From Nitrospirae bacterium MYbin3 (GTDB taxonomy: Bacteria > Nitrospirota > Thermodesulfovibrionia > Thermodesulfovibrionales > Dissulfurispiraceae), in contig PEAD01000014.1 in the NCBI GenBank assembly GCA_002753335.1, positions 1-64,000 on the forward strand: 64,000 bases of DNA, in the 5' to 3' direction. The notes under the pieces are model-generated. The model was given only the letters and a program-made list of their open reading frames with translations. It had not been told where the DNA came from and made no database searches. The position numbers and the translations under genes were made by a program. How positions within the stretch are numbered: the stretch's first letter is position 1; each line of letters opens with the position of its first letter. Below are positions 15,067 through 41,428 of the stretch, one piece after another.

Positions 15067-15196
15067 TAGTTTTTCCGTTAAACGGCAGGTAGTGAAAGTA
15101 TATGGTCTGCCAGGAGATTTTGCAAGTAGTAAAATTGACAAAAAACGAAAATTGAAACTATAATCACATACTTTTCTTTAAATTAAGGAGGATGTT

Positions 15197-17559: not shown

Positions 17560-19689
17560 ATGGGTTTTTTATCGGATATCAAGCGGGATTTTCGCGCTGT
17601 TTTCGAGCGTGATCCGGCCGCAACAAATGCCTTGGAAGTGGCGCTCACCTATCCCGGATTTCATGCTGCGGCAGCTTATCGTATAGCTCATGCGCTATGG
17701 AATTCTGGCGTGCCTATTTTGCCAAGAATCATCTCGAATATTTCGAGGACTCTCACCGGCATAGACATTCACCCAGCGGCAAAGATTGGAGCAGGTTTTT
17801 TTATTGATCACGGAATGGGAGTTGTTATCGGCGAAACATCCGAAGTGGGAGAAGAATGTCTTTTGTATCAGGGCGTAACTCTTGGAGGGACGGGCAAAGA
17901 CAAGGGTAAGAGGCATCCTACGCTCGGCAATCATGTTGTGGTAGGGGCCGGAGCAAAGATACTCGGGCCTATAACTATCGGAGATTATGTGAAGGTCGGC
18001 GCAAATTCTGTTGTTCTTAAGCCGGTGCCGGATAATGCTATTGTGGTTGGCGTTCCGGGCAAAATCATAAAAAGAAAGGTAGTAAGGATAGGGGAGGAAG
18101 GGCTGTTCGAAACGCTCGACCATGTAAGGCTTCCCGATCCTGTTGACGATAGACTGCAGGAGATGACCGAATATATCGAAAAGCTTGAAGCAAGGATAGA
18201 GAAGCTTGAAGGAAGAGGAGGCAGGATGAAGGTTTTCAACACCATGAGCGGCAGGAAAGAGGATTTTGTCCCGCTCACTAAAAATAAAGTCGGCATCTAT
18301 GCCTGCGGTGTCACGGTTTATGACTACTGCCATATAGGCCATGCCCGCAGCGCTATAGTGTTTGATGTTATGGTGAAGTATCTGCGCCATAAAAATTTTG
18401 ATGTGAAATATGTGCGGAACTTTACGGACATTGATGACAAGATAATCAGGCGGGCGAACGAAGAGGGCAGCGCATGGGATGCGGTGGCCTCAAAATATAT
18501 AGACGAATATTACCGTGATATGGATATGCTTGGAATAGCGAGGGCGGATATAGAGCCGAAGGCTACCGAACATATTCAGGAGATGATTGATGTAATAAAG
18601 GCGCTGGTCGATAAAGGCGTTGCATACGCTGTTGCCGAAGGCGAAAACAGCAGTGTTTATTTTGCGGTAGAGAAATTTGGCGAGTATGGCAAACTCTCGA
18701 AGAAAGAGCAGAAAGACCTGCAGGCAGGCGCGCGTGTGGATGTTGACGAGAGGAAGAAAACCCCGATGGATTTTGCTCTCTGGAAGGCTTCAAAAGAGGG
18801 GGAACCGTGGTGGGAAAGCCCGTGGGGCAAGGGCAGACCGGGATGGCATATAGAATGCACCGCTATGGCTATAAAGCATCTTGGGGAATCGATAGACATT
18901 CATGGCGGCGGCGCGGATTTGATTTTCCCTCATCACGAAAACGAGATTGCCCAGTCGGAAGCGTTCACAGGCAAGCCTTTCGCCAAATACTGGATGCACA
19001 ACGGCTTTATAACTATAGACAAAGAGAAGATGTCGAAATCGCTCGGCAACTTTTTTACGATACGGGACATATTGGAGAAGTATGACGCTGAAGTCGTCAG
19101 GCTGTTCGTTTTATCGAGCCATTACAGGAACCCGATAGAATTTTCTCACGAGCAGTTGAGGGATGCGGAATCATCGCTAGACCGTGTTTACAGCACAATA
19201 GCTAGGATTGAGGAGTTTCTTGTTTCTGACAGCGCATCAAAGAAAACGGTTTCAACCGCCGAGTTCGAAGAGTTTTTAGGAGAGTTCGAAGGGCTCTTTG
19301 CAGAAGCGATGGACGATGATTTTAACACCGCTTTATCAATAGGCCATATATTCGAGTTTGTCAGGGAGATTAATAAATTCTTGGATGCCAAGCCTCACGG
19401 AGACGCTGCAAAGGCTCTTATTGCAAGGGCAAAGGTTATGTTTGCAACAGCAACCGGAGTACTGAATCTTTTCAGGAGAACTCCTCTTCAGTGGAATGTG
19501 GACCTTTTGAGAAGCAAAAAAATAGAGCTTTCTGAACAGCAGATAATTCAGAAGATCGGTGAAAGGCAGGATGCGAGGCAGAAGAAAGACTGGGCAATGG
19601 CCGATGCTGTCAGAAAAGAACTTGAGGACAAGGGAATCCTTCTCGAAGACAAAAAAGAGGGAACCGACTGGAAGGTCAAGATTGCCTGA
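17560..19689 (+). CDS. cysE-cysS: Fusion of serine O-acetyltransferase (CysE) and cysteine--tRNA ligase (CysS)
   Basis: aa 1-~175 CysE ([26 protein letters not shown]); coiled-coil linker; CysRS from aa 223 (CGVTVYD, HIGH, DFALWK, PGWHIEC, KMSKS). No stop between the two parts. Confidence 0.93.
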
Positions 19690-23046: not shown

Positions 23047-23076
23047 TTGACAATCCCATCTTTTGTGTGCTCTAAT
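23047..23076 (+). promoter_or_regulatory. Putative sigma70 promoter of fur
   Basis: TTGACA (23047-52), 18 bp, TCTAAT preceded by TG; overlapped by a Fur box. Confidence 0.5.
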
Positions 23077-23093
23077 GATAATAAATATCATTA
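23073..23093. promoter_or_regulatory. Fur box 1 (autoregulation)
   Basis: TAATGATA-ATAAA-TATCATTA palindrome; core TGATAAT-A-AATATCA has 1 mismatch to the 7-1-7 consensus. Confidence 0.8.
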
Positions 23094-23106
23094 CCAAAAC
23101 TGCAAT

Positions 23107-23538
23107 ATGACTATGAATACACCAAGAGAAATATTTGCAAATTATATAAGCAAACAGGGACTGCGTAATACACAGCAGAGAGACGACATTCTTGCTGCAT
23201 TTTTTTCTTCTGAAAAACATATCACTGTTGAGGAGCTTTTTAGCGTGGTAAAAACAAAAAATCCTGCTATTGGCTATGCAACTGTCCACAGGAACCTGAA
23301 TCTGCTTTGTGAGTGCGGCTTGGCTGATGAGATAAAAATAGGAAAACAAAAAGCCAGATATGAGCCTAAATTTGGGCAAAAGCATCATGATCACTTAATC
23401 TGTCTTAGATGCGGCAAATTTACAGAAGTCATTAATAGCAAAATAGAGAAGCTTCAGGACAAGCTTGCAGAAGAGAACGGCTTCATGCCCGTCAGACACA
23501 AGCTGGAGATATACGGAATCTGCAGGGAGTGCAGATAG
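23107..23538 (+). CDS. fur: Ferric uptake regulator family repressor
   Basis: GLRNTQQR, HITVEEL, IGYATVHRNL, HHDHLICLRC and YGICREC. ATG 23107 or 23113. Confidence 0.93.
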   Translation: MTMNTPREIFANYISKQGLRNTQQRDDILAAFFSSEKHITVEELFSVVKTKNPAIGYATVHRNLNLLCECGLADEIKIGKQKARYEPKFGQKHHDHLICLRCGKFTEVINSKIEKLQDKLAEENGFMPVRHKLEIYGICRECR

Positions 23539-23546
23539 TTTTTTTT
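23518..23546 (+). terminator. Terminator-like hairpin within the fur 3' end
   Basis: ATCTGCA-GGGAG-TGCAGAT (7-bp perfect stem), then AG and T8. Confidence 0.5.
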
Positions 23547-23556
23547 GCGTCTAAGA

Positions 23557-23571
23557 TGATATTAATTTTCA
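23557..23571. promoter_or_regulatory. Fur box 2 (upstream of mini-Fur)
   Basis: TGATATT-A-ATTTTCA, 2 mismatches to TGATAAT-N-ATTATCA. Confidence 0.6.
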
Positions 23572-23602
23572 TTTTCAATAATAAAGGAGGAGGTAACTAC
23601 AG

Positions 23603-23770
23603 ATGAGTTTATTTAGAAAAAGTAATTTGGTTTGCTTGAAATGCAAAAAGTGCATCGAGGTCACCGATAGCAAGATCGCTAAACTGCAGTACAGGCTTGC
23701 CAAGGCTAATGATTTCATTCCCATTAGAGAGAGCTTGGAGATATACGGAATCTGCAGGGAGTGCAGATAG
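23603..23770 (+). CDS. 55-aa stand-alone Fur C-terminal dimerisation domain ('mini-Fur')
   Basis: Manual translation: MSLFRKSNLVCLKCKKCIEVTDSKIAKLQYRLAKANDFIPIRESLEIYGICRECR*. RBS AAGGAGGAGG. 30/47 aa identical to the adjacent Fur C-terminus. Confidence 0.8.
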   Translation: MSLFRKSNLVCLKCKKCIEVTDSKIAKLQYRLAKANDFIPIRESLEIYGICRECR

Positions 23771-23778
23771 TTTTTTTT
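23750..23778 (+). terminator. Second copy of the terminator-like hairpin, within the mini-Fur 3' end
   Basis: ATCTGCA-GGGAG-TGCAGAT-AG-T8. Confidence 0.5.
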
Positions 23779-23784
23779 GTGCCA

Positions 23785-23807
23785 CAATTGATAATAATTA
23801 TCAATTG
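23785..23807. promoter_or_regulatory. Fur box 3 (upstream of feoB)
   Basis: Perfect 11-1-11 palindrome CAATTGATAAT-A-ATTATCAATTG containing the exact 7-1-7 consensus. Confidence 0.92.
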
Positions 23808-23833
23808 CAATAAATTAATGCCGAGGTGTTGCA

Positions 23834-25825
23834 ATGACATTGCTTGGGAAAAAACAAAAGTGCCATGCTGCGCAGTCTGTTTCATTTAATGGTAAAAGGA
23901 AGGTTGTGCTGGTAGGAAACCCGAATGTTGGCAAGAGTGTTCTGTTTAATGTTCTTACCGGAGCATATGTAACAGTATCAAACTATCCCGGCACATCGGT
24001 AGAGGTTACTCGCGGCGTAGCAATAATTGAAGAAGAGCAGTTTGAGGTTATTGATACTCCCGGAATGTATTCTCTTATGCCAATCACGGAAGAAGAGCGT
24101 GTAGGCAGGGAGATACTGTTAAACGAGTGCCCTGATATAGTCATTCATGTAATTGATGCGAGAAATCTTGAGCGTATGCTGGCAATGACTATTCAGTTGA
24201 TAGAAGCAGGCTTGCCTGTAATTTTGGTTGTAAATATCATGGATGAGGCAGAGCGTTTAGGACTAGGCATAAACATACCTCTCCTCGGCGAAAAACTTGG
24301 CATTCCGGTCATTGGTGCGGCAATGGCTAAAAAAAGGGGCGTTGAGGAAATAAGAAAGAGCATATCAGGTTTTAATCCGAAAGAAATCCGCCAATTCAAT
24401 TACAATAAAAAATTTGAGGATGATATAACAGAAATAGCATTAATGCTAAAAGGTGACTACAGGCTTTCACGTAAAGCAATAGCCTTGCTGCTTATGCAAA
24501 AGGATAATGAAATTGCCGAATTGATTGAGGAGCAGGAAGGAGCTGGGTATCAGGCAATAGATGAGCTTGTGAGAGAGAAGGTTTTTGAGCGGAGGGAGTC
24601 TCTGCATATGGACATATCAATGCAAAGACGAGAGATTGTGAAGGGCATCATCAAGGATGTTTTCTCAGCGCCGGAGCGTAGAAGGTTTACGCTAAGCGAC
24701 AAGCTGTCAAACTGGAGCGTCAGTCCCCTTACTGGCATACCTCTTCTTTTAATAGTTCTCTATTTTGGTCTCTATCAGTTTGTTGGTGTTTTTGGAGCCG
24801 GGACAGTTGTTGATCTGCTTGAGAAGAAGCTGATAGAGGGAATGTTCAATCCTTGGATTACCGAGACGGTTAACAATGTTGTTCCTTGGGAGATTATTCA
24901 GGAGCTGATTGTCGGAGAATACGGCATTATCACTATGGGTGTTCGATATGCGGTAGGCATTATACTTCCGATTGTAGCCACTTTCTTCCTTTTTTTCTCG
25001 ATGCTGGAAGACAGCGGATACTTTCCCAGATTGGCTCTTCTTGTTGATAGGGTATTCAAAAAAATAGGTCTTTCTGGGCGTGCCGTAATACCTATGGTGC
25101 TTGGGTTCGGCTGCGACACAATGGCTACTATGGTAACAAGGACTCTTGAAACTGTTAGAGAAAGGATTATTGCCACGCTTCTCCTTGCTCTTGCAATTCC
25201 ATGTTCTGCGCAGCTTGGGCTAATCCTATCGCTTTTGTCTAAATCCCAAGGGAGCTTTTTTGTTTGGGCAGGATGCGTACTGATGCTTTTTCTAACTGTT
25301 GGATTTTTTGCCGCACGAGTCATTCCGGGGGACAAAACAATGTTTTATATGGAGCTGCCGCCTATGCGGATGCCCCAACTGTCTAATGTCCTGACAAAAA
25401 CATATACAAGAATGCAGTGGTATTTTATGGAAATACTGCCTTTATTTATTTTTGCATCTGTACTTCTATGGCTTGGAAAGATAACCCACTTTTTCGAAAA
25501 GATGGTGGAATGGTTCAACCCTGTGATAAATGCCATAGGGCTTCCCAAAGAGACCACGGTGGCGTTCATTTTCGGCTTTTTCAGGCGTGATTACGGTGCG
25601 GCAGGGCTTTTCGACCTTCAGGAAAAGGGGCTGCTAGATGTTAGGCAAATAACAGTGGCTGCTGTGACTCTTACCCTTTTCGTGCCATGCATAGCGCAGT
25701 TCCTGATAATGAAAAAAGAGCGAGGCCTCAAAACCGCACTAATGATGGGTCTGTTCGTGAGCGTTATAGCCTTTGGAAGCGGTTATTTTCTAAATAAACT
25801 GCTGGTTACAACCGGAATATTATGA
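23834..25825 (+). CDS. feoB: Ferrous iron transporter B
   Basis: GNPNVGKS, NYPGT, DTPG, LEDSGY, LGFGC, IPCSAQ, MELPP and a multi-TM C-terminus. Confidence 0.96.
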   Translation: MTLLGKKQKCHAAQSVSFNGKRKVVLVGNPNVGKSVLFNVLTGAYVTVSNYPGTSVEVTRGVAIIEEEQFEVIDTPGMYSLMPITEEERVGREILLNECPDIVIHVIDARNLERMLAMTIQLIEAGLPVILVVNIMDEAERLGLGINIPLLGEKLGIPVIGAAMAKKRGVEEIRKSISGFNPKEIRQFNYNKKFEDDITEIALMLKGDYRLSRKAIALLLMQKDNEIAELIEEQEGAGYQAIDELVREKVFERRESLHMDISMQRREIVKGIIKDVFSAPERRRFTLSDKLSNWSVSPLTGIPLLLIVLYFGLYQFVGVFGAGTVVDLLEKKLIEGMFNPWITETVNNVVPWEIIQELIVGEYGIITMGVRYAVGIILPIVATFFLFFSMLEDSGYFPRLALLVDRVFKKIGLSGRAVIPMVLGFGCDTMATMVTRTLETVRERIIATLLLALAIPCSAQLGLILSLLSKSQGSFFVWAGCVLMLFLTVGFFAARVIPGDKTMFYMELPPMRMPQLSNVLTKTYTRMQWYFMEILPLFIFASVLLWLGKITHFFEKMVEWFNPVINAIGLPKETTVAFIFGFFRRDYGAAGLFDLQEKGLLDVRQITVAAVTLTLFVPCIAQFLIMKKERGLKTALMMGLFVSVIAFGSGYFLNKLLVTTGIL

Positions 25826-26004
25826 TGCGCTGCGGTTTTTGCGGATATGATTTTGAAGAGAAAGAAGGAATTCAGGGATGCAAGAACTGCCCCATGTCCG
25901 GCGGATGCAAAATGATAAAGTGTCCGAAATGCAACTATGAAAATCCTTCCGAGCCTTTTTGGGTAAAGAAGGTTAAAGGTTTTTTTAAGGAGGCAAACAA
26001 ATGA
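25822..26004 (+). CDS. Small Cys-rich FeoB-associated protein
   Basis: 60 aa with 7 Cys (CxxC-x12-CxxC-x5-C-x4-CxxC); overlaps both neighbours by 4 bp. Confidence 0.75.
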   Translation: MMRCGFCGYDFEEKEGIQGCKNCPMSGGCKMIKCPKCNYENPSEPFWVKKVKGFFKEANK

Positions 26005-26657
26005 AACTTTCAGAAAATGCTGAAGAAATATTGGAAGCGATGTGGATTGCGATTGAAGAAAATGGGGGCGATTTTGCTGCAATACAATATATTGGAATAG
26101 ATTCTAGGGATCCTGCGTATGCCGAACTTGTAGATTCTGCCCTTATTGAATTAAAGGACGGACATGCGTATTTTTTTGAAAAAGGCAGGGAAGAAGGGCG
26201 TCAGACTATTCGTCGCCATAGACTTGCGGAGCGCCTGTTGATGGATGTTTTAGATATAAGGGGTGAAGAGGGGGATAAAAAGGCTTGTCAGTTTGAACAC
26301 CTCCTAAAAGAAGGTGTTGATATAAAAGTATGCAATATGCTGAACCATCCTTCTACGTGTCCCCATGGAAAGCAGATCCCTATGGGAGACTGTTGCACAG
26401 AGGCGCGCAAAAGCGGCAATCTTGGAGTGCTGCCTTTAACCGAACTGAATCCGAAAGAAGATGGCGAAATAGCTTTTATCCAAACCAAAGACTCAAAAAT
26501 AATGCACAAACTAATGTCTATGGGGGTTTTGCCGGGCAATCAGATTTATCTTGTGCAAAATTTCCCATCGTATATTTTTCGCATAGGCTATTCCGAGTTT
26601 GCGATTGATTCTGAGATGGCTGATAAAATTTATGTAAGACAACTGGTTCGACAATAA
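26001..26657 (+). CDS. DtxR/MntR-family metal-binding protein with C-terminal FeoA domain
   Basis: RRHRLAERLL, ACQFEH and CPHGKQIP; FeoA-like KLMSMGVLPG...FAID...A.KIYV. Confidence 0.88.
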   Translation: MKLSENAEEILEAMWIAIEENGGDFAAIQYIGIDSRDPAYAELVDSALIELKDGHAYFFEKGREEGRQTIRRHRLAERLLMDVLDIRGEEGDKKACQFEHLLKEGVDIKVCNMLNHPSTCPHGKQIPMGDCCTEARKSGNLGVLPLTELNPKEDGEIAFIQTKDSKIMHKLMSMGVLPGNQIYLVQNFPSYIFRIGYSEFAIDSEMADKIYVRQLVRQ

Positions 26658-26758: not shown

Positions 26759-26788
26759 TGTTAAATGTGTAAACTATCACGATTAACA
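26759..26788. promoter_or_regulatory. Palindromic operator (Rex- or CRP/FNR-family-like)
   Basis: TGTTAAATGTG-TAAACTAT-CACGATTAACA; arms 9/11 complementary; core TGTGT-N6-TCACG. Confidence 0.5.
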
Positions 26789-26837
26789 TTTTTTATAAGA
26801 CCATAATATTTACAATGACCCCTGCATAGAGGGAGAT

Positions 26838-27614
26838 ATGACCAAGAATCGTATATTAGTGGTGGACGATGACCCTGTTATAGGTCTGAGCTGTAAGAGG
26901 ATGCTCGGATCTGAGGGCTTTTCTGTTTTTGCGGTCAAGGACGGCGAGAGTGCTATCGACAAGATATCCAAGGAAGAGTTCGATCTTGTTATAACCGATA
27001 TCAGGCTGCCGGATGTGTACGGGCTTACCATAGTCAAAGAGGCAAAAACGGTTCAGCCGCAGTCGGATGTTCTTGTAATAACAGGCTACCCATCTCTTGA
27101 TGATGCGAAAGAATCAATAAGGCTCGGCGCCTTCGAATATCTAGAAAAACCATTTACTCCGGATTTCATGCTGAATGCTGCCAAGCGGGTTTTTGATGCT
27201 CGCGGCTGGGTGATGAGAAAATCCTATGTTGATCAATTTAAGGATTATGTTGTCTGCCCATCCGAACTTGACGACAAGGCTGTATATTACAAGGACGGAA
27301 CATGGGCTAGGCCTTTAAGCGCAGACCTTTGGGAGATAGGCGTTGATGTTAGGCATTTTCTTGCGGGAGGGCAGCTTCTTTTTGTGGAGCATATTTCTGG
27401 ACTTAAGGCAGTTATGAGCGGAGAGCCTTTTGCAAAGCTGCTTTCTAACGATGGCAGGACAGGCGCGACGTATGAGGTAAAAGCGCCTATGACAGGAATA
27501 ATCAAAGAAATAAATCAGAGAGCGAATGAAGCTATAAGCTCGCTGTTAAAAGAGCATGTATGTGAAAGCTGGTTTATCTGGCTCGCAAAGATAAGCCCTG
27601 TGGCCGCAAAATAA
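26838..27614 (+). CDS. Response-regulator receiver fused to a GcvH-like (lipoyl-fold) domain
   Basis: Receiver motifs DDD/TDIRLP/TG/KP; C-terminus WAR...IGVD...GQLLFVE...GEPFA...APMTG.I.EIN...WLAKI parallels H-protein but lacks the ESVK lysine. Confidence 0.72.
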   Translation: MTKNRILVVDDDPVIGLSCKRMLGSEGFSVFAVKDGESAIDKISKEEFDLVITDIRLPDVYGLTIVKEAKTVQPQSDVLVITGYPSLDDAKESIRLGAFEYLEKPFTPDFMLNAAKRVFDARGWVMRKSYVDQFKDYVVCPSELDDKAVYYKDGTWARPLSADLWEIGVDVRHFLAGGQLLFVEHISGLKAVMSGEPFAKLLSNDGRTGATYEVKAPMTGIIKEINQRANEAISSLLKEHVCESWFIWLAKISPVAAK

Positions 27615-27645
27615 AAGTTTGAACTTATATTAAGGAGGATAAAGG

Positions 27646-28506
27646 ATGGACGGCAATATCCTTGTTGTTGATGATGAAAAGATAGTGCTTAAAAGCTGCG
27701 AGAAGGTGCTCGCTCCTGAAGGCTACAAGGTTTCTACGGTTGCATCAGGGAGAGAGGCTCTCGACCTGCTCGACAAGAACCGTTATGATTTGATAATCAC
27801 GGATATTAAAATGCCAGAGATGGACGGCATAGAGTTTATAAGGCAGGCAAGGAAAAAGAACACTGACATAAATATTATTGTTATAACTGGCTATCCCTCT
27901 CAGGAAAGCATAAGAGAGGCGCTTAGTCTGAGGATCGTGGATTATCTTCCCAAGCCTTTTTCCCCTACTATTCTTCTGGATGTTGTTACAAGGGCGATGG
28001 AGATGAAAAAAATTGGCGTGGCTCCTCAGCCGGATGTTGAGGACTATACGGAAGAGATTGCGTCAAAACTGGATGCCATTATAAAGAAGTCCAGGAACAA
28101 GCTGGGCAGTCTTATACCTGTGCTTCAGGAGGCGCAGGAGCTTGTGGGATATCTGCCGCCGGTAGTTCTCAGGCATATATCGAGGGGGCTCAGGATTCCG
28201 TTGAGCGAGGTTCACGGCGTGGTTTCATTTTATTCCTACTTCACCATGAAGCCGAGAGGCAAACATAATATAAGGATATGCCTCGGGACCGCCTGTTATG
28301 TAAAGGGCGCAGAAGAAATAGTGAAGAAGCTGACAGAGAACCTGCATATAGATGTAGGCAGCGTTACAGAGGACAAGAAATTTTCGCTTGAATCGGTGCG
28401 TTGTCTGGGGGCCTGCGGACTTGCGCCGGTTGTTGTTATAGGCAAGGATACTCATGGTTCTGTGAACCCTGTGGATACTATGGACCTGCTTACAAATTAT
28501 CAATAA
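27646..28506 (+). CDS. Receiver domain fused to NuoE/HydC/HndA [2Fe-2S] subunit
   Basis: Receiver motifs DDE/TDIKMP/TG/KP; then LIPVLQEAQ, VVSFY, CLGTACYVKG and CLGACGLAP. Confidence 0.9.
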   Translation: MDGNILVVDDEKIVLKSCEKVLAPEGYKVSTVASGREALDLLDKNRYDLIITDIKMPEMDGIEFIRQARKKNTDINIIVITGYPSQESIREALSLRIVDYLPKPFSPTILLDVVTRAMEMKKIGVAPQPDVEDYTEEIASKLDAIIKKSRNKLGSLIPVLQEAQELVGYLPPVVLRHISRGLRIPLSEVHGVVSFYSYFTMKPRGKHNIRICLGTACYVKGAEEIVKKLTENLHIDVGSVTEDKKFSLESVRCLGACGLAPVVVIGKDTHGSVNPVDTMDLLTNYQ

Positions 28507-28535
28507 GCATATAGAAAAGGAATTCAGGAGGTTTT

Positions 28536-28919
28536 ATGGCGAAGCTTACGATTGACGACTTGAAAAAAATAAAAGACAACTACAAAGCTACGATGACAGT
28601 CAGGGACGGCGGCTCCCGCGCCAAGGTGACGGTGCATATGGGAACCTGCGGGATTACGGCCGGAGCGCGCAAGGTTATGGAAGCGCTGCTTGACGAGATA
28701 AGCAAAAATAACATTACTGACACTATTGTGACCACGAGCGGCTGCGCCGGTTTTTGCAGCAAAGAGCCTATGGTTACGGTTGAGCTCCTTGGTTCATCAC
28801 CTGTGAAATATATAACGATGGACGAGGACAAGATGCGCAAGGTTGTAAAAGAGCATTTGTTGGGCGGCAAGATTGTTGAGGACTGCGCCCTCGTAGCAGG
28901 CAACGAGTCCTCATATTAA
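28536..28919 (+). CDS. Thioredoxin-like [2Fe-2S] ferredoxin (HndB/HydD-like)
   Basis: VHMGTCGITAGAR and SGCAGFCSKEP motifs. Confidence 0.87.
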   Translation: MAKLTIDDLKKIKDNYKATMTVRDGGSRAKVTVHMGTCGITAGARKVMEALLDEISKNNITDTIVTTSGCAGFCSKEPMVTVELLGSSPVKYITMDEDKMRKVVKEHLLGGKIVEDCALVAGNESSY

Positions 28920-28955
28920 TACAGGTGAAATTTATTTAATGAAAATAAAAAAATT

Positions 28956-29019
28956 AACCACAGAGGTCTCAGAGAAAAAGCTTTTCAGGTCTTTTAATAA
29001 CTCGGTGTTCTCTGTGGTT
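28956..29019. repeat. REP-like palindromic element (copy 2)
   Basis: AACCACAGAG...CTCTGTGGTT perfect 10-bp arms with an imperfect inner extension. Confidence 0.65.
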
Positions 29020-29039
29020 GTCTTTTAACAGGAGGATAA

Positions 29040-30914
29040 ATGGAAAATTATCGTGCGAGTGTTATGCTGTGCGGCGGGACCGGTTGTATGGCCGGCGACA
29101 GCCTTAAGATAAAGGATGCGTTTACTGATGAACTTAACAAAAGAGGGCTGTCCCATGAGATAAATGTTGTTATTACCGGCTGCAACGGCTTCTGTGCTCA
29201 GGGGCCGGTAATGACCGTCTATCCGGATGACATCTTTTACGAAAAGGTGAAAGTAGCCGATGTTCCTCTGATAATAGAAGAGCATTTTATCAAGGGACGG
29301 CCTGTAGAAAAGCTCATGTACAAAGAGCTTGCGAAGAAGAGCGCTATCCCTCTTATGAAGGATATCCCGTTTTTCAGTCTTCAGGTTTTGAGGGCGTTGA
29401 GAAATAAAGGCCTCATAGACCCCGAAAAGATAGAAGAGTACATTGCAAGGGACGGATATATGGCGGCTGCAAAGGCGCTTAACGAAATGACTCCCGAACA
29501 GGTTATAGATGAGATGAAACGCTCAGGGCTGAGAGGCCGCGGCGGCGCTGGATTTCCTACCGGACTTAAATGGGAACTGAGCGCAAAAGTTAAAGGCGGC
29601 GAAAAATTTATCATCTGCAACGGCGATGAGGGCGATCCCGGAGCCTTTATGGATAGAAGCATCATGGAAGGCGACCCGCATGTTGTGCTGGAAGGCATGC
29701 TAATAGGTGCTAGAGCTATCGGAGCAAGCAAGGGATATATTTATGTCAGAGCTGAGTATCCACTTGCGGTTCAGAGGCTTCAGATAGCTATAGATCAGGC
29801 AAAGGAGTTCGGTCTTTTAGGTGACAATATACTTGGATCAGGATTTAATTTCGATATCGAGATTTATCAGGGCGCAGGAGCCTTTGTATGCGGCGAGGCG
29901 ACAGCGTTGATGAGATCGATAGAGGGCAAGCGCGGTATGCCGAGGCCTAAGTTCTGGCGTTCTGCGGTAAAAGGTCTTTGGGACAAGCCTACTGTTTTGA
30001 ACAATGTCGAAACCTTCGCAAATATTCCGCAGATAATTCTTAATGGAGCATCATGGTACACAAGCCTCGGCACAGAAAAATCAACAGGCACCAAAGTTTT
30101 TGCGCTCAGCGGCGCGATAAACAATATCGGTCTTATCGAAGTGCCTATGGGCATTCCTCTCAGCAAGATAATCTATGATATCGGCGGCGGTGTTCCGAAG
30201 GGTAGGAAGTTCAAGGCTGTTCAGCTCGGCGGTCCGTCGGGCGGCTGCATACCTGAATCACTGATAGACACCCCGGTCACTTTTGAAGACATCGTGAAGA
30301 CCGGCGCTATTATTGGCTCGGGCGGAATGGTTGTTATGAACGATCTGAACTGCATGGTCAGTGTTTCTAAATTCTTTCTTGAGTTCACAACCGAAGAGTC
30401 ATGCGGAAAATGCCCGCCCTGCAGGATAGGCAACACAGTGCTGCAGGATCTCTTGGAGAAGATAACTAAAGGCGAAGGAGAGGAAGGGGACATCGAGCTT
30501 ATCGAAGATATCTCGCATGAAATAATAAAGACCTCTCTCTGCGGTTTGGGACAGACTTCGCCTAACCCTGTTTTAACTTCCATCAGATATTTCAGGAGTG
30601 AATTTGAGGAGCATGCAGGGGACAAGTGGTGCAGAACAGGGGTCTGCAAGGACCTATGCACCTTCTATATTGAAGAAGAAAAATGTAAGGCATGCGGAGC
30701 CTGCAAGAGGGTCTGCCCGCAGAAGGCGATAATCGGCGAGAAGAAGGTGCCGCATCGCATTGACCAATCACTCTGCGTTCAGTGCCGCTCATGCTATACG
30801 GTTTGCAAGTTCGATTCTGTCAAGATAGGGCCCCGCGCAATGAGGGACCAGCTTCTTGAGCAGTGGGTAAGCGATTCCGGCAAGACGGTTGCCATGGCAG
30901 GTAAGGAGGAATAG
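29040..30914 (+). CDS. NuoF/HydB/HndC-type flavin subunit with N-terminal Trx-like Fe-S and C-terminal 2x[4Fe-4S]
   Basis: GRGGAGFPTGLKW, DEGDPGAFMDR, GAGAFVCGEATAL, GGPSGG, SCGKCPPCR, LCGLG, H..DK.C...VC and two CxxCxxCxxxC motifs. Confidence 0.93.
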   Translation: MENYRASVMLCGGTGCMAGDSLKIKDAFTDELNKRGLSHEINVVITGCNGFCAQGPVMTVYPDDIFYEKVKVADVPLIIEEHFIKGRPVEKLMYKELAKKSAIPLMKDIPFFSLQVLRALRNKGLIDPEKIEEYIARDGYMAAAKALNEMTPEQVIDEMKRSGLRGRGGAGFPTGLKWELSAKVKGGEKFIICNGDEGDPGAFMDRSIMEGDPHVVLEGMLIGARAIGASKGYIYVRAEYPLAVQRLQIAIDQAKEFGLLGDNILGSGFNFDIEIYQGAGAFVCGEATALMRSIEGKRGMPRPKFWRSAVKGLWDKPTVLNNVETFANIPQIILNGASWYTSLGTEKSTGTKVFALSGAINNIGLIEVPMGIPLSKIIYDIGGGVPKGRKFKAVQLGGPSGGCIPESLIDTPVTFEDIVKTGAIIGSGGMVVMNDLNCMVSVSKFFLEFTTEESCGKCPPCRIGNTVLQDLLEKITKGEGEEGDIELIEDISHEIIKTSLCGLGQTSPNPVLTSIRYFRSEFEEHAGDKWCRTGVCKDLCTFYIEEEKCKACGACKRVCPQKAIIGEKKVPHRIDQSLCVQCRSCYTVCKFDSVKIGPRAMRDQLLEQWVSDSGKTVAMAGKEE

Positions 30915-30917
30915 AAA

Positions 30918-33380
30918 ATGAATTTAGTTGAGCTTACTATAAACGGAAAAACGGTCAAGGCAGCAAAAGGTGCGACCATACTGCAGGCCGCTCTTAAGAA
31001 CGGGATTTACATACCCAATCTTTGCTACGACCGCAGACTTAGTCCATATGGCGGCTGCAGAATGTGTGTTGTAGAGGTTGAAGGACAGAAAGGGTTGTCT
31101 GCTGCATGCTCCACTCAGATTAGGGAAGGTATGGTTGTGTTCACAGAAACGCCGGTTGTAGCCAAGTCGCGCAAGGCGGTTCTCGAACTTTTACTTTTAC
31201 ACCACCCGCTCGACTGCCCTGTTTGCGACAAGGCCGGCGAATGCAAGCTGCAGGATATGGCCTACAAGTACGGCTCGACCAGCAATAGGTTCTCGGCCTC
31301 GAGAAAGGATGAGCCTGAACGCCTTGACTCTCCTGTTGTTGAGCGCAATCCGAACAGATGTATTTTATGTGGCCTCTGCGTGAGGATATGCCAGGACCAT
31401 CAGGGCGTCGGAGCTATTAATTTTATAGGCAGAGGCTTTAAGACCAAGATAAGCCCTGCGTTTGAGGAGACTCTCGACTGCGAATTCTGCGGTCAGTGTA
31501 TTGATGTCTGCCCGGTAGGGGCGCTCGGCAGCAAGACATACAGGTTTATGTCGAGAGTCTGGTACATGAATGAAGAAGAGATGATATGCCCTTATTGTGG
31601 CTGCGGATGCACCACAAACCTGAGTGTTCGTCAGGGAAAAATTATCAGGGGCAGAGGCAAGGAAGGCGTAGGGATAAACGACGGAGACCTGTGTGGCAAG
31701 GGCAGATACGGCTTTGATTATATTTATGCAGAAAACAGGCTCAAGACTCCGATGATAAGAAAAGAAGGAAACCTTGTGCGGGCTTCATGGGACGAAGCGC
31801 TTAAATATGTGGCAGAACGGATGGGCAGTATAATCGAGAAACACGGGCCGGCGTCCGTAGGCGCAATAGGCTCTCAGAGGTGTTCTATAGAAGATAACTT
31901 CATGCTCCAGAAGTTTATGCGCGAAGCTGTTGGAACGGACAACATAGATTCTGCCGCACGCTTCGGATATGCAAAGGCGCATAAGGCTATGGAGAAATCG
32001 TTTGGATCTGATTTTATGCCTATCGGCTGGGAGGCTCCGCTTAACGCAAAGTTCCTGCTTGTTATAGAATCGGACATAACTTCTGCTATGCCTGTATGGG
32101 GGCTTAACTTCATTCTTGCCAGAAACAACGGTGCACATCTTGCTGTTGCTGACTCCAAAGAAACAAAGCTTGTGAGAAACAGCAGCCAATGGATTCGTCT
32201 AGTGCCCGGCACGGGCGTTGCTCTCCTGAACGGCATGATGAAGGTGATTATTGATGAAGGACTTTACGACAAAGAAAAAGCGCAGGGGATACAAAACTTC
32301 TCGGCGCTTGAAAGTTCTCTCAAGGATTATACTCCGGCAGCGGTCTCTGCTATAACAGGAGTTTCTGAGGATGAGATTAGGAATCTCGCACGCGAATATT
32401 CTTCCGCAAAAAGCAGGTTGGTTGCTATGACATCCGGCGCATCAGAGAATATAAAAAGCCTGAACACCATGCTTGCTGGAGCCAATCTGGTGATGCTTCT
32501 CGGCGACAGTCCCGACACATTGCAGATTCCTGCAGAATTTTCTAATACCCTTGGAATGTGGTCTGCAGGTGTAAGGCCTGCTGAGCAGGGCAAGGAAATG
32601 CAGGAGATGCTTTACGCTAAAGATGCAAGCCTAAAGGCGTTGTACATAATGGGAGAAAATCCGATCGTTACATTCCATGACGTTGCCGCTGTTGAAAATA
32701 CGCTTAAGGGCATGGAGCTGCTTGTGGTTCAGGATATTTTCCTTACCGATACCGCAAAGATGGCGGATGTTGTGCTTCCTGCATGCAGCTGGGCAGAGAA
32801 GGATGGAACCTTCATGTCGGCTGCCGGAGCTGTTCAAAAAATAAGGAAGATCGTTAAGGAGACGGGCGAAGCGATTCCGGACTGGGAGATATTTGTCAGG
32901 CTCTCAAAAGCGATGGGAAAAGATTTAGGACTGAATTCAGTTGCTGAAATAAGCGCACAGGTCAGCGAAAAACTTTCGACTCTCGGAAAAAATGATTTGA
33001 AACTTTCGTTCAATCCTGCGGCGTACGAACTTATCGAGAATTCGAGCAGTGAATTCCCGATGCTTCTTGTGACCGCAAATATTCTGCAGCATTCGGGCGC
33101 ACTTTCATCGCTTTCGAGAAACCTTGACTCTGTGGTTTCTGATGCGTATCTGGAATTGAGTCCTGCTGATGCCGAGAAATACAAAATCATAAATGAGAGT
33201 TATGTTAAGGTCATTTCTAAGAGGGGCGAGATTCTCCTTAAAGCCATTATATCTAACGAAGTGCCCGAGAAAACGGTGTTTGTGCCTATACATTTTGCCC
33301 ATGCAAAGGTAAATACTCTTACCTATCCTGCTGTCAATGGAGGCATTCCTCTCGTGCCGGTGAGAATAGAACCGGCTTAA
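30918..33380 (+). CDS. NuoG/SfrA/FdhA-like Fe-S protein with molybdopterin-oxidoreductase fold, likely non-catalytic
   Basis: N-terminal 2Fe-2S (GGCRMC), HPLDCPVC, CILCGLC, CEFCGQC and CPYCGCGC...LC.KG; NIDSAARFG lacks the Mo/W-ligating Cys/Sec of formate dehydrogenases. Confidence 0.85.
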   Translation: MNLVELTINGKTVKAAKGATILQAALKNGIYIPNLCYDRRLSPYGGCRMCVVEVEGQKGLSAACSTQIREGMVVFTETPVVAKSRKAVLELLLLHHPLDCPVCDKAGECKLQDMAYKYGSTSNRFSASRKDEPERLDSPVVERNPNRCILCGLCVRICQDHQGVGAINFIGRGFKTKISPAFEETLDCEFCGQCIDVCPVGALGSKTYRFMSRVWYMNEEEMICPYCGCGCTTNLSVRQGKIIRGRGKEGVGINDGDLCGKGRYGFDYIYAENRLKTPMIRKEGNLVRASWDEALKYVAERMGSIIEKHGPASVGAIGSQRCSIEDNFMLQKFMREAVGTDNIDSAARFGYAKAHKAMEKSFGSDFMPIGWEAPLNAKFLLVIESDITSAMPVWGLNFILARNNGAHLAVADSKETKLVRNSSQWIRLVPGTGVALLNGMMKVIIDEGLYDKEKAQGIQNFSALESSLKDYTPAAVSAITGVSEDEIRNLAREYSSAKSRLVAMTSGASENIKSLNTMLAGANLVMLLGDSPDTLQIPAEFSNTLGMWSAGVRPAEQGKEMQEMLYAKDASLKALYIMGENPIVTFHDVAAVENTLKGMELLVVQDIFLTDTAKMADVVLPACSWAEKDGTFMSAAGAVQKIRKIVKETGEAIPDWEIFVRLSKAMGKDLGLNSVAEISAQVSEKLSTLGKNDLKLSFNPAAYELIENSSSEFPMLLVTANILQHSGALSSLSRNLDSVVSDAYLELSPADAEKYKIINESYVKVISKRGEILLKAIISNEVPEKTVFVPIHFAHAKVNTLTYPAVNGGIPLVPVRIEPA

Positions 33381-34039
33381 TGGGGAAAACCTTATTTGAT
33401 TGCATTGATGAACGATATGATTTCCTGAACCGCCTCTTCTCCGCCTGTCTGGATATATGGTGGAGGAGAGTGATGGTCAAAAAGCTTTCGCCATCCAAAG
33501 ATATGTTGGTGCTGGACCTTGCAACCGGCACAGGCGACAGCGCAAGCGGGATGCTCGATAAGGACGTTCGTGTTATCGGTCTTGACCTCAGCCTGAACAT
33601 GCTTGCGAGAGCGAAACAAAAGATTCAAAATTCTTTTTATCAGTTATCTGCAGGCACGGTCTATTCACTTCCGTTCAGAGATGGAATTTTTGACGGGCTG
33701 ACATGCGCTTTTGGCATAAGGAATATGCATGAAACCGCAAAGGCTCTAGATGAGATATTTCGTGTGATGAAAAAGGGCGGCAAGATTGTGATACTCGAGT
33801 TTTCGATGCCGAGGTCTTTTATAAGGATTCCGTACAACTTTTACCTTAAGAAGGTTATGCCTGCGGTTGCGGCCCTGTTTTCTGAAAGGGACGCGTACCT
33901 GTATCTCGCTGAATCGATCGAGGCTTTTCACAGTCCGGATGAACTTTGCAGGCTGATAGAAACAGCGGGCTTTGTGTCTTGCAAGAAAACAGCGCTATGT
34001 TTTGGAAACGTCTATATACACGAAGCGGTTAAACCATGA
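33380..34039 (+). CDS. ubiE: UbiE/MenG-family quinone methyltransferase
   Basis: RYD..N...S...D..WRR, VLDLATGTGD, AFGIRN, ILEFS and Y.YLAESI motifs. Confidence 0.85.
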   Translation: MGKTLFDCIDERYDFLNRLFSACLDIWWRRVMVKKLSPSKDMLVLDLATGTGDSASGMLDKDVRVIGLDLSLNMLARAKQKIQNSFYQLSAGTVYSLPFRDGIFDGLTCAFGIRNMHETAKALDEIFRVMKKGGKIVILEFSMPRSFIRIPYNFYLKKVMPAVAALFSERDAYLYLAESIEAFHSPDELCRLIETAGFVSCKKTALCFGNVYIHEAVKP

Positions 34040-39487: not shown

Positions 39488-41428
39488 TTATTGGATTTTT
39501 TGTTTTAAAGGCAACGTAAATATAAATCTGCTGCCTTTTCCAAATTCGCTTTCAACCCAAATCTTTCCCCCGTGCAGTTCAATCAGATTCTTTGACAGTG
39601 CAAGGCCAAGACCTGTGCCTTCATGTTTCCTGGTGTAAGAAGAATCGAGCTGAACAAATTCTCTGAAAAGTTTTGGTATGTCATCTTCTTTTATCCCGAT
39701 TCCGGTATCTTCAACCGAAATTTCAACATAGTCTTTGCTTGTATTTTTCGCGCGCACTGTTACCTGCCCACCTTTAGGCGTGAATTTAAGGGCATTGCTG
39801 AGAAGGTTGTAGAGTATCTGTTTGAGTCTTTTGTAATCGGCGCACAAATTGTCCGTAACATCCGGTTCTATTTCAACATTTATTTTTACCTGATGATTCA
39901 ATGCTGCTGCGGTTATTATCTTCAATGATGAGTTCAGCACATCTCTTAGGCTGAATGTTGTCAATTCAAGGGCAATCTCGCCTAATGTAAAATCTGAGAA
40001 ATCAAGTATTTCATTCACAAGTTCCAGAAGATGCTTGCCGCTTTTAAGTATATACCCAATCTCTTCCTTTTGTTTCTGATCCAGTTCTTCGTAAGTCAGT
40101 ATCATGTCAGAAAAACCTATGATAGAGTTCAAAGGAGTTCTCAGTTCGTGGCTCATGTTGGCAAGGAAGAGACTCTTAGTATGATTTGCTGCATCCGCTC
40201 TCTTTTTTTCTATGCTGAGTTCCTGCATCATGCGCTTACGCTCTGTTATGTCGCGAGATATTGTAAGCACATGCGGTACCCCACCAATCATAATTTTAGA
40301 TGAATGAACTTCTACATCAATCATAGAACCGTCTTTGCGCCGCTGGGATGTCTCAACCGTTACGGCTTCTCCGGACAGGATGCGGTCAACTATGAGCCTA
40401 AGTGCATCGGGTGGGAAATTAGGGTCAATATCAGAGATGCTCAAACCTAATAATTCATCCCGTGTATATCCAAGATTGCGGCAGGTGGATTCATTGCAAT
40501 CTACAATGCGCCCCTCTCTATCAACGACGTGTATGTCATCAACCGCTTTTTCGAACAGAGTTTTAAATTTTTCTTCGCTTTCCTGCTGTGCGTCTTCTGC
40601 TTTCTTTTGTTCAGTTATGTCCCAGAAAAATCCCAATATGCCGGTAACATTACCGCCTTCATCCTTAATTGATTTTTTTACTGTGCGCACCCAGAACTCT
40701 TGCCCGTCTTTTATGTATTGCTCTTCTATGCTTTCGGATCGGCCCTGTTCAATAAGCCTTCTGTCATCTGCCCTGTATTTCTCAGCAAGCTCTTTAGGAT
40801 AAAAATCGTAATCTGTTTTGCCTGCGATTTCATCTGGTCTAATTTTCAGATCATCGGCATAGTTTTTGTTGCAGGAAATATATACAGAGTCCTTGTTCTT
40901 AAAAAATATCTTCTGCTGAAGATTTTCGAGAAGTGTATTGCATTTGTTCTCACACGCCTGCATTTCCTCCTTAATCCTAACTCTCACAGAAATGTCGTGT
41001 ATTATGCCGCAGGCCACTTTTTGCCCCGTATAAAGAGGAATGAAAGTGCCTGATATCTGAACCGGAAATACAGTGCCGTCTTTCTTTTTATGGTAGCGTA
41101 CCGGAATATGAATGGACTGCTTTAATTCAAGTTCTTTTATGGAAATATCTGAAGCAGCCTGCTCTGAGGTTATGTCACTATGGGTCATTTTTAAAAACTC
41201 TTCCCTGTTGTACCCATACATATTTTCGGCCGCTTTGTTTATGTCTATAATCTGCTTTGTTGTAATATCAAACAAAATTATTGCGTCTTGGGCTGAATGG
41301 AATAGCTGCCTGAATCTTTCTTCGGTATCTTTTTTGTCCTTTACTTCTGATTCCAGTTCCTTTATTTTCAGGCGTAGCCGTTCTAATTCTTCGATAAGCT
41401 GCTTGTTTGATTTATTGTCATCCGTCAT
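39488..41428 (-). CDS. Cytoplasmic multi-PAS sensor histidine kinase
   Basis: Three PAS/PAC repeats; [30 protein letters not shown] and GTGLGL. Confidence 0.92.

Follow-up and report, generated by a model that had tools for sequence, protein, structure and literature searches.

The 64,000-nucleotide stretch of Nitrospirae bacterium MYbin3 DNA analyzed here (the window) encodes a response regulator receiver joined to a subunit of a predicted electron-bifurcating flavoenzyme, which raises the question of whether a two-component signal could act directly on such an enzyme and, if so, on which step. The genes concerned form a unit of five (26838 to 33380) that begins one gene before the fusion gene, and this first gene had been missed in the initial annotation. 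The unit and the gene behind it are as follows:

26838 to 27614, + strand: receiver–GcvH-like (lipoyl-domain-fold) protein without the lipoyl Lys; Pfam Response_reg at residues 6 to 114
27646 to 28506, + strand: receiver–BfuC (NuoE/HydC) fusion; receiver 1 to 120, variable linker 121 to 135, NuoE/HydC part 136 to 286
28536 to 28919, + strand: HndB-like thioredoxin-fold ferredoxin paralogue, 127 amino acids; Cys38, 70, 74 and 117; weak NCBIfam 2Fe-2S ferredoxin match
29040 to 30914, + strand: BfuB (HydB/NuoF-like FMN subunit), 624 amino acids; motifs B5, B1, B2, B3 and B4; AFM/F/GGPSG
30918 to 33380, + strand: BfuA, full-length NuoG/FdsA-like, 820 amino acids; five Fe-S motifs
33380 to 34039, + strand: UbiE/MenG quinone methyltransferase; overlaps the stop codon of bfuA; TIGR01934 above the cut-off

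HndB-like, HydB-like and NuoG-like genes thus follow the fusion, as had been claimed. The product of 28536 to 28919, here called HndB-like, resembles the N-terminal domain of BfuB (29% identity). The UbiE/MenG gene is probably cotranscribed with the unit here; among the relatives clustered, no recurring UbiE/MenG cluster was found after bfuA, and the gene is not a conserved member of the unit. In front of the unit at 26838, no sigma-54 consensus was found (the 6 matches of the window, versus 4.1 expected, all lie elsewhere), and a sigma-70-like site at 26783 to 26810 (9/12) is within chance.

The receiver and BfuC form one polypeptide

The open reading frame from 27646 to 28506 is a single frame of 286 amino acids in which Pfam finds Response_reg at residues 5 to 114 (E = 1.3e-30) and 2Fe-2S_thioredx at residues 143 to 286 (E = 1.2e-47). 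The receiver has the acidic pocket, the phospho-Asp, the Thr, the Lys and the (beta/alpha)5 fold of a response regulator: D9, D10, D53 (codon 27802 to 27804), T81 and K103 are all present, and the model matches Spo0F with a TM score of 0.93 (by target). The NuoE part carries C212, C217, C253 and C257, the ligands of the [2Fe-2S] cluster C1, and its top solved relatives are the HydC chains 7t2r_C, 8a6t_C and 7q4v_C. The initial description of an intact receiver fused in frame to a complete four-Cys NuoE/HydC domain therefore holds. In the AlphaFold model of the whole protein (pTM, 0.51), the arrangement of the domains is not fixed.

An assembly error had been named as a possible source of the fusion. 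This was ruled out, because both Pfam domains are present in each of the best 120 homologues listed, the full-length fusion recurs in 81 out of 134 further genomes from the class, and an independent 226-base contig from run X1 bridges the junction (window positions 27905 to 28130) with 1 difference.

The gene in front of the fusion encodes a second receiver. Its orthologues give weak GCV_H matches, and an Atlas structure match is also to GCV_H. All 51 distinct orthologues keep the D/D/D/T/K set, and a conserved Lys in the hairpin, as expected of a lipoate carrier, was looked for and found in none of them. The gene precedes the fusion in 47 of 80 loci, and in two Oligoflexia proteins (P0121 and P0122), receiver, GcvH-like and NuoE domains are united in one polypeptide.

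Cofactor sites of BfuB and BfuA

BfuB matches 7t2r_B with an E value of 3.6e-241 and has the FMN/NADH domain and all five sites B1 to B5, the B2 metal being Fe-S or Zn. The cluster motifs are C11/16/48/52, C455/458/461/501, C438/H525/C531/C536 and two C-terminal CxxCxxCxxxC motifs; together with AFM at 202, F282 and GGPSG at 397, they bear out the motifs reported for the HydB-like subunit, and the cofactor motifs of BfuB and BfuC support the proposed HydABC/Bfu-type core. According to two reports (PMC7311640, PMC8880783), AFM, Phe and GGPSG separate bifurcating from nonbifurcating beta subunits. The canonical NuoF on contig C5 of MYbin3 has TFK/Tyr for AFM/Phe. Like MYbin3, 62 of 78 relatives keep B1 to B5, C1 and the three diagnostic motifs intact; 10 of the 78 lack at least one of AFM/F/GGPSG, and one more is cut by the locus end. 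The module is thus predicted to be electron bifurcating, the motifs being predictive of bifurcation and not proof of it.

The nucleotide pocket of BfuB is of the NADP type, with Ala287 (29898 to 29900) and Arg307 (29958 to 29960), the latter aligned with Arg340 of Thermoanaerobacter kivui HydB, which contacts NADP+ (PMC10021017). Such pockets are rare (6 of 78 relatives), and the enzyme would prefer NADP(H) in MYbin3. Mutants of Escherichia coli NuoF at E183 are said to be a precedent for the use of NADPH.

BfuA has the motifs for all of A1 to A5, including the His-ligated N5/A3 and N7/A5, and no catalytic site. By sequence, FdsA (E = 8e-119) is a nearer relative than any solved NuoG (E = 2e-76), and Gly350 and Tyr351, each at least 90% conserved among 42 orthologues, stand where formate dehydrogenase has the Cys-His molybdenum site. 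With the Mo-ligand Cys/Sec and the His missing, a role of BfuA as a molybdenum formate dehydrogenase (Fdh-Bfu Type 1) was rejected.

Conservation of the fusion in the Thermodesulfovibrionia

Where enough downstream DNA was available, bfuB and bfuA directly follow the fusion in 71 of 72 loci. The five catalytic residues of the receiver and the four cysteines are all kept in 75 of 84 distinct fusions. Among 77 fusions, the mean pairwise identity is 56% for the receiver and 63 to 64% for the NuoE part, the variable linker between them reaching 24%. Moreover, the output face of the receiver, alpha4-beta5-alpha5, is 64% conserved versus 48% for alpha2-alpha3. At the sequence level, the view that selection keeps the receiver intact is supported. 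Among the best 7 candidates from each of 351 genomes around that of the Desulfosarcina locus (G457), there was no full-length fusion.

A candidate kinase outside the window

Three PAS kinases are indeed present in the window (13177 to 15141, 39488 to 41428 and 62464 to 63990), and the initial annotation had pointed to them as possible partners of the receiver. They were dropped, because no receiver or synteny link to the module was found, while a specific kinase family encoded elsewhere accompanies it. In 25 of the 80 loci examined, a dedicated kinase gene adjoins the module, and its MYbin3 orthologue is a membrane kinase on contig C52 (G000:C52:10139-11275). A Ser-Cys motif in helix 1 occurs in only 3 of the 123 receivers of the genome, two in the unit and one in the operon of the C52 kinase, with scores of 52, 42 and 38 versus 19 or less for the remainder. 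The kinase query matches 77 of the 80 fusion genomes (E ≤ 1e-60), G181 and G296 weakly.

The receiver has degenerated in four genomes (G126, G241, G296 and G344), and G288 has lost it. A search for the kinase orthologue found none in G126, G241 or G344, the kinase of G296 is truncated, and that of G288 has a His-to-Asn exchange; also, no GcvH-like domain was found in any of the five. Receiver function and kinase were lost together in two lineages, which are two independent events only. Since the enzyme genes outlive the loss of the receiver, the receiver is not needed for enzyme function. Against the pairing stands G181 (80 contigs), where the receiver is intact and no kinase orthologue was found. 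Synteny, the helix-1 residues and the joint decay point to the C52 kinase as the likely partner of the BfuC receiver.

Linkage to complex I

Of the 80 fusion genomes, 28 have the module within 25 kb of nuoD; in the other 52, nuoD is not within 25 kb on the module contig, many of these contigs being short. In two of the 80, the module sits inside the nuo operon between nuoD and nuoH, replacing nuoEFG in G196 and in tandem with nuoEFG in G142. A canonical NuoF orthologue is absent from 17 of the 80 genomes, and in 15 of these nuoD is directly followed by nuoH. Furthermore, unfused relatives with the same accessory cassette occur inside nuo operons (L008 to L011, L013, L023 and L150). In the BfuB tree, which was built without sequences of the published Nuo-Bfu clades, the module groups with Nitrospirota Nuo-Bfu (SH-aLRT, 92) at an unstarred node that includes an unrelated row (L032), and the BfuA tree does not resolve this pairing.

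Counting against a role as a head of complex I, canonical NuoF is present in 63 of the 80 genomes. MYbin3 itself has the module on contig C44 and a complete nuoA-N with ordinary NuoEFG on C5, so that placement in the nuo operon in lieu of nuoEFG, a trait of Nuo-Bfu Type 3, is not found there. Family f5 has a BfuB match in 0 of 10 genomes; headless complex I can exist without the module. A function as diaphorase of an orphan hydrogenase was also considered and rejected: no orphan hydrogenase and no [FeFe] hydrogenase was found in the 94%-complete genome, and each of its two cytoplasmic [NiFe] enzymes comes with partner subunits of its own.

Working model and alternatives

We tentatively favor, at chances just short of even, a predicted bifurcating module without a catalytic site of its own that docks on complex I as a second head and is phospho-switched through the BfuC receiver. 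Phosphorylation, bifurcation and docking are each what we infer as likely from the sequences. The head would dock on the quinone-reducing arm as a second input head and couple NAD(P)H plus reduced ferredoxin to menaquinone via NuoI/NuoCD, a coupling proposed for Nuo-Bfu (PMC9304861). The mean donor potential would be about -390 to -440 mV versus -74 mV for menaquinone, a gap that roughly equals the cost of four pumped protons; thus, the head could run in reverse. Reverse electron flow might then provide ferredoxin as well as NAD(P)H for the Wood-Ljungdahl pathway, which is encoded in the MYbin3 genome.

The C52 membrane kinase would phosphorylate a single-domain receiver (C52:7638-8006) as well as the receivers of BfuC and the GcvH-like protein, three in all. 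Some relatives probably have a fourth target, a sigma-54 activator encoded in the same cassette. The BfuC receiver possibly pairs with the receiver–GcvH-like protein. The initial annotation had proposed control of assembly or electron gating. We favor the former, with phosphorylation acting on assembly or docking via the conserved alpha4-beta5-alpha5 face; gating through the swing of C1 is less likely, because the receiver is attached by a variable linker to the N-terminal helical domain and not to the mobile [2Fe-2S] domain. Control of docking would let the cell choose between the ordinary NuoEFG head (C5) and the Bfu head. That a heme-sensing membrane kinase, by phosphorylating the receiver of the bifurcating head along with a receiver–GcvH-like adaptor, switches complex I with its two interchangeable heads between NADH oxidation and a reversible ferredoxin/NAD(P)H confurcation, which could also be driven backward by protons for carbon fixation, is a more speculative extension of the model and appears doubtful.

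The third partner might not be complex I at all; a soluble, phospho-controlled Bfu enzyme could instead work with a separate oxidoreductase, such as a formate dehydrogenase subunit or a sulfur metabolism complex. The nearness of BfuA to FdsA, the fdhD or PAS-GAF gene after bfuA in 13 of 80 loci, the several molybdoenzymes of the genome (including an FdhF-like gene at C45), the presence of dsrAB and the 52 genomes that have no nuoD within 25 kb of the module on its contig fit this possibility. We consider it unlikely, since no recurring catalytic partner gene was found beside the module among the loci examined, the fdhD link is mostly confined to the window's own family, and the insertions in G196 and G142 are at the nuoEFG position. 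The idea that the head is a nonbifurcating NADPH (here) or NADH dehydrogenase of complex I, phospho-controlled and with vestigial ferredoxin domains, could draw on the NADP-type pocket and on the loss of AFM/GGPSG from some module BfuBs. It is quite improbable given that the clusters and diagnostic motifs are intact here and in the 62 relatives and that the HydABC of T. kivui uses NADP+ and bifurcates (PMC10021017).

Two further readings leave the enzyme unswitched. The BfuC receiver could be a phosphate sink or redox reporter that loses its phosphate according to the state of the enzyme and so tunes how much phosphate the sigma-54 activator and other receivers obtain: three or four receivers, among them the NtrC-type activator of relatives, seem to share one kinase; in G268, the genes for kinase, single receiver and receiver–BfuC adjoin without neighboring bfuB/bfuA; and the variable linker and the model without a fixed domain arrangement would suit such a role. 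However, a sink has no need of a class-wide fusion to one subunit, conservation is higher in the output face than in alpha2-alpha3, the activator orthologue is unclear in MYbin3 (best, 44 to 45%) and the unit lacks an upstream sigma-54 consensus, which make this reading rather improbable. Finally, the fusion may have arisen from neighboring genes as a neutral passenger or structural add-on whose phosphorylation has no role; the cassette upstream of bfuC is crowded with receiver genes, and the domain has been lost or has degenerated in five genomes. We give this very little credence, since the receiver falls only a little short of the NuoE part in conservation, its catalytic residues are intact in 75 of 84 fusions and its decay coincides with loss of the kinase.

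Relation to known systems

Electron-bifurcating enzymes determine how much energy anaerobes have to spend, and if the favored model is true, one of them would be under direct signal control. A class of Nitrospirota active in sulfur cycling conserves the receiver–BfuC system. With a receiver joined to the flavin-adjacent subunit and an identifiable kinase, the model is testable with small soluble proteins, and natural variants provide built-in controls in the form of dead-receiver lineages and NAD- versus NADP-type pockets. Moreover, the system offers a handle on the hypothetical Nuo-Bfu: is complex I fed by ferredoxin plus NAD(P)H, and does one membrane arm serve two heads? In the literature searched, we found no description of the receiver–BfuC system or of a signal-switched electron-bifurcating enzyme.

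Receivers are joined to metabolic enzymes in REC–thioredoxin reductase and REC–pyruvate phosphate dikinase (PMC5847659), whereas the output here is one subunit of a multisubunit Fe-S flavoenzyme; the main text of that study mentions neither NuoE nor ferredoxin. In mycobacteria, Rv3143/MSMEG_2064 is likewise a receiver tied to complex I, with a proposed control of assembly or activity, but it is a separate single-domain protein at NuoB/A/C/I of a nonbifurcating complex, its Asp is buried and its kinase is not known (PMC10068793, PMC9274095); in the module, the receiver and a subunit of the input head share one chain, and a candidate kinase can be named. FdsABG, the NAD-dependent formate dehydrogenase (6TG9, 9WXB), shares with the module the sequence of the large subunit, FdsA being closest to BfuA, and differs in that BfuA has Gly-Tyr for the Mo-ligand Cys and the adjacent His and in that FdsB has no ferredoxin tail.

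Structures of bifurcating HydABC enzymes are available for the NiFe-HydABCSL of A. mobile (7T2R; PMC8880783) and for Acetobacterium woodii and T. kivui (7Q4V and 8A6T; PMC10021017). They are the top-scoring solved relatives of BfuB and BfuC and have the same motifs, and T. kivui HydB has an NADP-type Ser/Arg pair similar to the pocket of the module. The receiver is attached to the HydC-type N-terminal four-helix bundle, which in these structures is near the HydB/HydA interface. In contrast to the HydABC enzymes, the module has neither an H-cluster nor a HydSL partner.

The nearest counterpart is Nuo-Bfu, a complex I predicted to have 14 subunits and to carry BfuABC as its head, whose BfuB falls into clades 38 and 39, the latter including Nitrospirae (Schut et al. 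2022, PMC9304861). The words "receiver" and "response regulator" are absent from the main text of that study, and "response regulator" is absent from one supplement. Common to both are the BfuBC core, a five-cluster BfuA without a catalytic site, a position between nuoD and nuoH, which some relatives show, and menaquinone as the proposed third substrate. Unlike Nuo-Bfu, the module mostly lies outside the nuo operon, usually in genomes that also have canonical NuoEFG, and it comes with a receiver–GcvH-like gene, a dedicated kinase and an intact receiver on BfuC. We regard it as a variant of the Bfu/Nuo-Bfu kind.

Fusion of a receiver to BfuC within a five-gene module

The module (26838-33380) comprises five co-oriented genes coding for receiver–GcvH-like, receiver–BfuC (NuoE/HydC), HndB-like, BfuB (HydB/NuoF-like) and BfuA (NuoG-like) proteins. 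The initial annotation had begun this unit with the receiver–NuoE gene; the genes it named are all present, but the unit starts earlier, with the receiver–GcvH-like gene:

26838-27614, receiver–GcvH-like protein, a second receiver fusion, directly upstream of the receiver–BfuC fusion
27646-28506, receiver–BfuC fusion ORF in a single frame; Pfam receiver at residues 5-114, NuoE-type domain at 143-286

The in-frame fusion of an intact receiver to a four-cysteine NuoE domain, as annotated, is borne out by these Pfam domains and by the residues kept in the receiver (D9, D10, D53, T81 and K103) and in the NuoE domain (C212, C217, C253 and C257). An AlphaFold model of the fusion based on a 29-sequence alignment (pLDDT 75, pTM 0.51) had a (beta/alpha)5 receiver, a helical bundle and a thioredoxin-like domain without a fixed mutual arrangement, and its halves separately matched receivers and HydC/FdsG/NuoE chains in Foldseek. 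A domain search found both domains in 120 of 120 of the best homologues listed, and the named homologues are nearly all Nitrospirota, e.g., Thermodesulfovibrionales and Ca. Nitrobium versatile. In an independent run, too, a contig crosses the receiver/NuoE junction, with 1 difference in 226 bases. This contig and the two-domain homologues rule out the assembly artefact that the annotation had named as a possible refutation. In a sample of 400 other genomes of the phylum, 134 belong to the window's class (Thermodesulfovibrionia) and 81 of these have the full-length fusion; none of the matches listed from the 266 outside the class spans both domains. No fusion was seen by shallow scoring of 351 genomes sampled around that of a Desulfosarcina locus.

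In 80 loci with flanking DNA (some genomes contribute two), the receiver–GcvH-like gene lies upstream of the fusion in 47 and a membrane kinase beside the module in 25; 31 have a DRTGG/ATPase/PHP/HATPase accessory cassette nearby. Downstream DNA suffices in 72 loci, and in 71 of these bfuB and bfuA come directly after the fusion. All 51 distinct receiver–GcvH-like orthologues have kept the catalytic receiver residues, and the conserved lipoyl lysine is absent from all 51. Two proteins of Oligoflexia (P0121 and P0122, 743-757 aa) carry receiver, GcvH-like, unassigned middle and NuoE parts in one chain, with the Ser-Cys motif in helix 1 of the receiver discussed below; this joining suggests that the receiver, GcvH-like and NuoE parts act together. 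P0124 and similar proteins form a family of ~550 aa with a receiver at each end and a cysteine-rich, repeated middle without a Pfam family.

Directly upstream of the module, on the same strand, are fur, feoB and a DtxR-FeoA regulator (23047-26657); these iron uptake genes, here adjoining an iron-rich module, were not seen as a recurring neighbour among relatives. The window also contains a 709-aa ORF (17560-19689) in which CysE (serine O-acetyltransferase) and CysS (cysteine-tRNA ligase) are joined, both above NCBIfam cutoffs; a similar 710-aa ORF is present in locus L125.

Enzyme core and nucleotide pocket

Among solved structures, BfuB best matched the B subunits of bifurcating enzymes (7t2r_B, E 3.6e-241). 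It has all five cluster sites and the three motifs that separate bifurcating from nonbifurcating beta subunits (PMC7311640, PMC8880783), and with these its sequence fits the Bfu family as defined in PMC9304861. BfuA carries five Fe-S motifs, with Gly-Tyr at the position of the Cys-His molybdenum site of formate dehydrogenase; across 42 orthologues, both residues are at least 90% conserved. The formate dehydrogenase Cys is a molybdenum ligand. Lacking this site, the module is predicted to have no site of its own at which a third substrate could react, and thus to need a partner.

At two pocket positions at which most relatives carry Glu and Phe, BfuB of the window has Ala287 and Arg307. Among 154 distinct NuoF-like sequences in the loci examined, Glu at the first site goes together with Phe, Tyr or Leu at the second (142 sequences), and its absence with Arg, Gln or His (all 12 others); 6 of 78 module BfuBs lack the Glu. 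Arg307 aligns with Arg340 of HydB of T. kivui, whose first site is Ser; this HydABC works with NADP+, and its described nucleotide contacts include Arg340 (PMC10021017). By this parallel BfuB likely prefers NADP(H), but not certainly, since 9mqx_B, a Bfu aldehyde oxidoreductase solved with NADH, also lacks the Glu. Judged from the residues, the NADP-type pocket is a trait of a few lineages and not of the whole family.

Complex I as a candidate partner

The genome encodes DsrA, acetyl-CoA synthase and three [NiFe] hydrogenases, two of which are cytoplasmic and have their own electron transfer subunits; no [FeFe] hydrogenase was detected in it. Contig C5 carries a complete nuoA-N operon including canonical NuoEFG. 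A second, unfused Bfu-like set (C64:113558-119049, L133) contains BfuC, a 781-aa BfuB with a Ser/Arg NADP-type pocket, a 197-aa NuoF-fragment/ferredoxin protein and a degenerate NuoG-like protein. A NuoE-like gene at the end of contig C35 and an FdhF-like fragment at the start of C45 (L135, L136) may be pieces of a single additional flavin/formate dehydrogenase operon split by assembly.

Linkage to nuo genes was analyzed in 80 of the 81 genomes with the fusion. nuoH is present in 77, nuoD in 75 and canonical NuoF in 63; 15 of the 17 without canonical NuoF have nuoH directly after nuoD. In 28 genomes nuoD is no more than 25 kb from the fusion, mostly in divergent orientation; in two, the fusion stands between nuoD and nuoH, in place of nuoEFG (G196) or ahead of it (G142). 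Unfused homologues in another Nitrospirota family and at two deltaproteobacterial loci are inside nuo operons with a full or partial accessory cassette, a placement of bfu genes known as Nuo-Bfu (PMC9304861). In a BfuB tree (56 rows subsampled from 115), a branch (SH-aLRT 82) set the 21 module rows apart from the rest, and they grouped with Nitrospirota Nuo-Bfu and one other row (SH-aLRT 92). Against complex I stand the absence of the module from family f5 (0 of 10 genomes), BfuA scores nearer to FdsA than to NuoG, fdhD or PAS-GAF genes after bfuA in 13 of 80 loci, a BfuA tree that did not recover a pairing of the module with Nuo-Bfu either way, and the kinship of the genomes counted, which are not independent. 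On balance, these sequence comparisons somewhat favor complex I as the partner.

An extra nuoD-nuoI pair adjoins the module at L163:13422-16702 (G344) and at L164 (G288), where the receiver is dead or lost. In G268 (L138, L160), the kinase, a single receiver and receiver–BfuC share one contig, and a divergent bfuB-bfuA pair lies on a different one.

Kinase and receiver decay

Of the kinase family that adjoins the module in relatives, this genome has a single clear orthologue (C52:10139-11275; 53-65% identity, next match ≤43%), the first gene in an operon that also holds the accessory cassette and the gene for a single-domain receiver. The Ser-Cys motif in helix 1 occurs in only 3 of the 123 receiver domains of the genome, the two of the module and this single-domain receiver. 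At ten positions, chosen by analogy and which we take to correspond to known kinase contact sites, these three score 52, 42 and 38, and all others ≤19. A periplasmic CxxCH motif is present in 24 of 27 kinases of the family; the C52 kinase (378 residues) has lost the domain bearing it and kept the histidine.

Seventy-five of 84 distinct fusions are fully intact. Phospho-Asp and Lys are lost in genus g5 (G126, G241 and G296), and Thr and Lys in G344; of the remaining five, Asp is replaced by Glu in two (both second copies) and by Asn in one, and Thr is substituted in two. A kinase orthologue was not found in G126, G241 or G344 and is truncated in G296; in G288, the sister of G344, the receiver is lost and the kinase has His-to-Asn. 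The GcvH-like domain was not found in these five genomes by a search without a positive control. As read from the sequences, the joint decay of receiver and kinase is two independent events. A counterexample is G181, with an intact receiver and no kinase found. Altogether, a dedicated signalling layer on the module has good comparative support.

The second copies with Glu at the phospho-Asp position, a classic phospho-mimic, are L144:9449-10306 (G396) and L146:6404-7219 (G350); the latter has lost most NuoE cysteines, and its BfuB shares the Ala/Arg pocket with that of the window.

Proposed mechanism

BfuBC would handle NAD(P)H and ferredoxin at the FMN, and BfuA would relay electrons via an N5-like cluster to NuoI. 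With potentials of about -280 (NADH), -380 (NADPH), -500 (ferredoxin) and -74 mV (menaquinone) (PMC9304861), the calculated drop from NAD(P)H plus ferredoxin to menaquinone is 630-730 meV per electron pair (about 410 meV for NADH alone). By our calculation, pumping four protons at a typical proton motive force would cost about as much as this drop, and therefore electron flow between module and complex I is plausible in either direction.

The linker from receiver to BfuC (15 residues, 24% mean identity) leads to the helical bundle, which in HydABC is near the HydB/HydA interface and away from the swinging C1 domain (PMC10021017), and the alpha4-beta5-alpha5 face of the receiver is better conserved than alpha2-alpha3 (64% versus 48%). 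For both reasons, we prefer that phosphorylation would control assembly or docking rather than gate cluster movement. The main alternative is that the receiver is a reporter or phosphate sink. Taken as a whole, assembly or docking control of a module feeding complex I is the best explanation, held tentatively at slightly less than an even chance.

Comparison with known systems

Searches of open-access articles, chiefly of their main texts, gave no description of a receiver joined to NuoE/HydC/BfuC; PMC12318220 and a 2026 HoxEFUYH preprint supply background only. Precedents for part of the idea are the receiver subunit of mycobacterial complex I (PMC10068793, PMC9274095) and receiver–enzyme fusions in general (PMC5847659). 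The receiver–BfuC module is real and conserved, an apparently undescribed variant of a known enzyme family, and complex I as its partner has moderate support. By its sequence, it would work like the head of Nuo-Bfu and has the sequence features of Bfu, but in this genome it is located outside the nuo operon.
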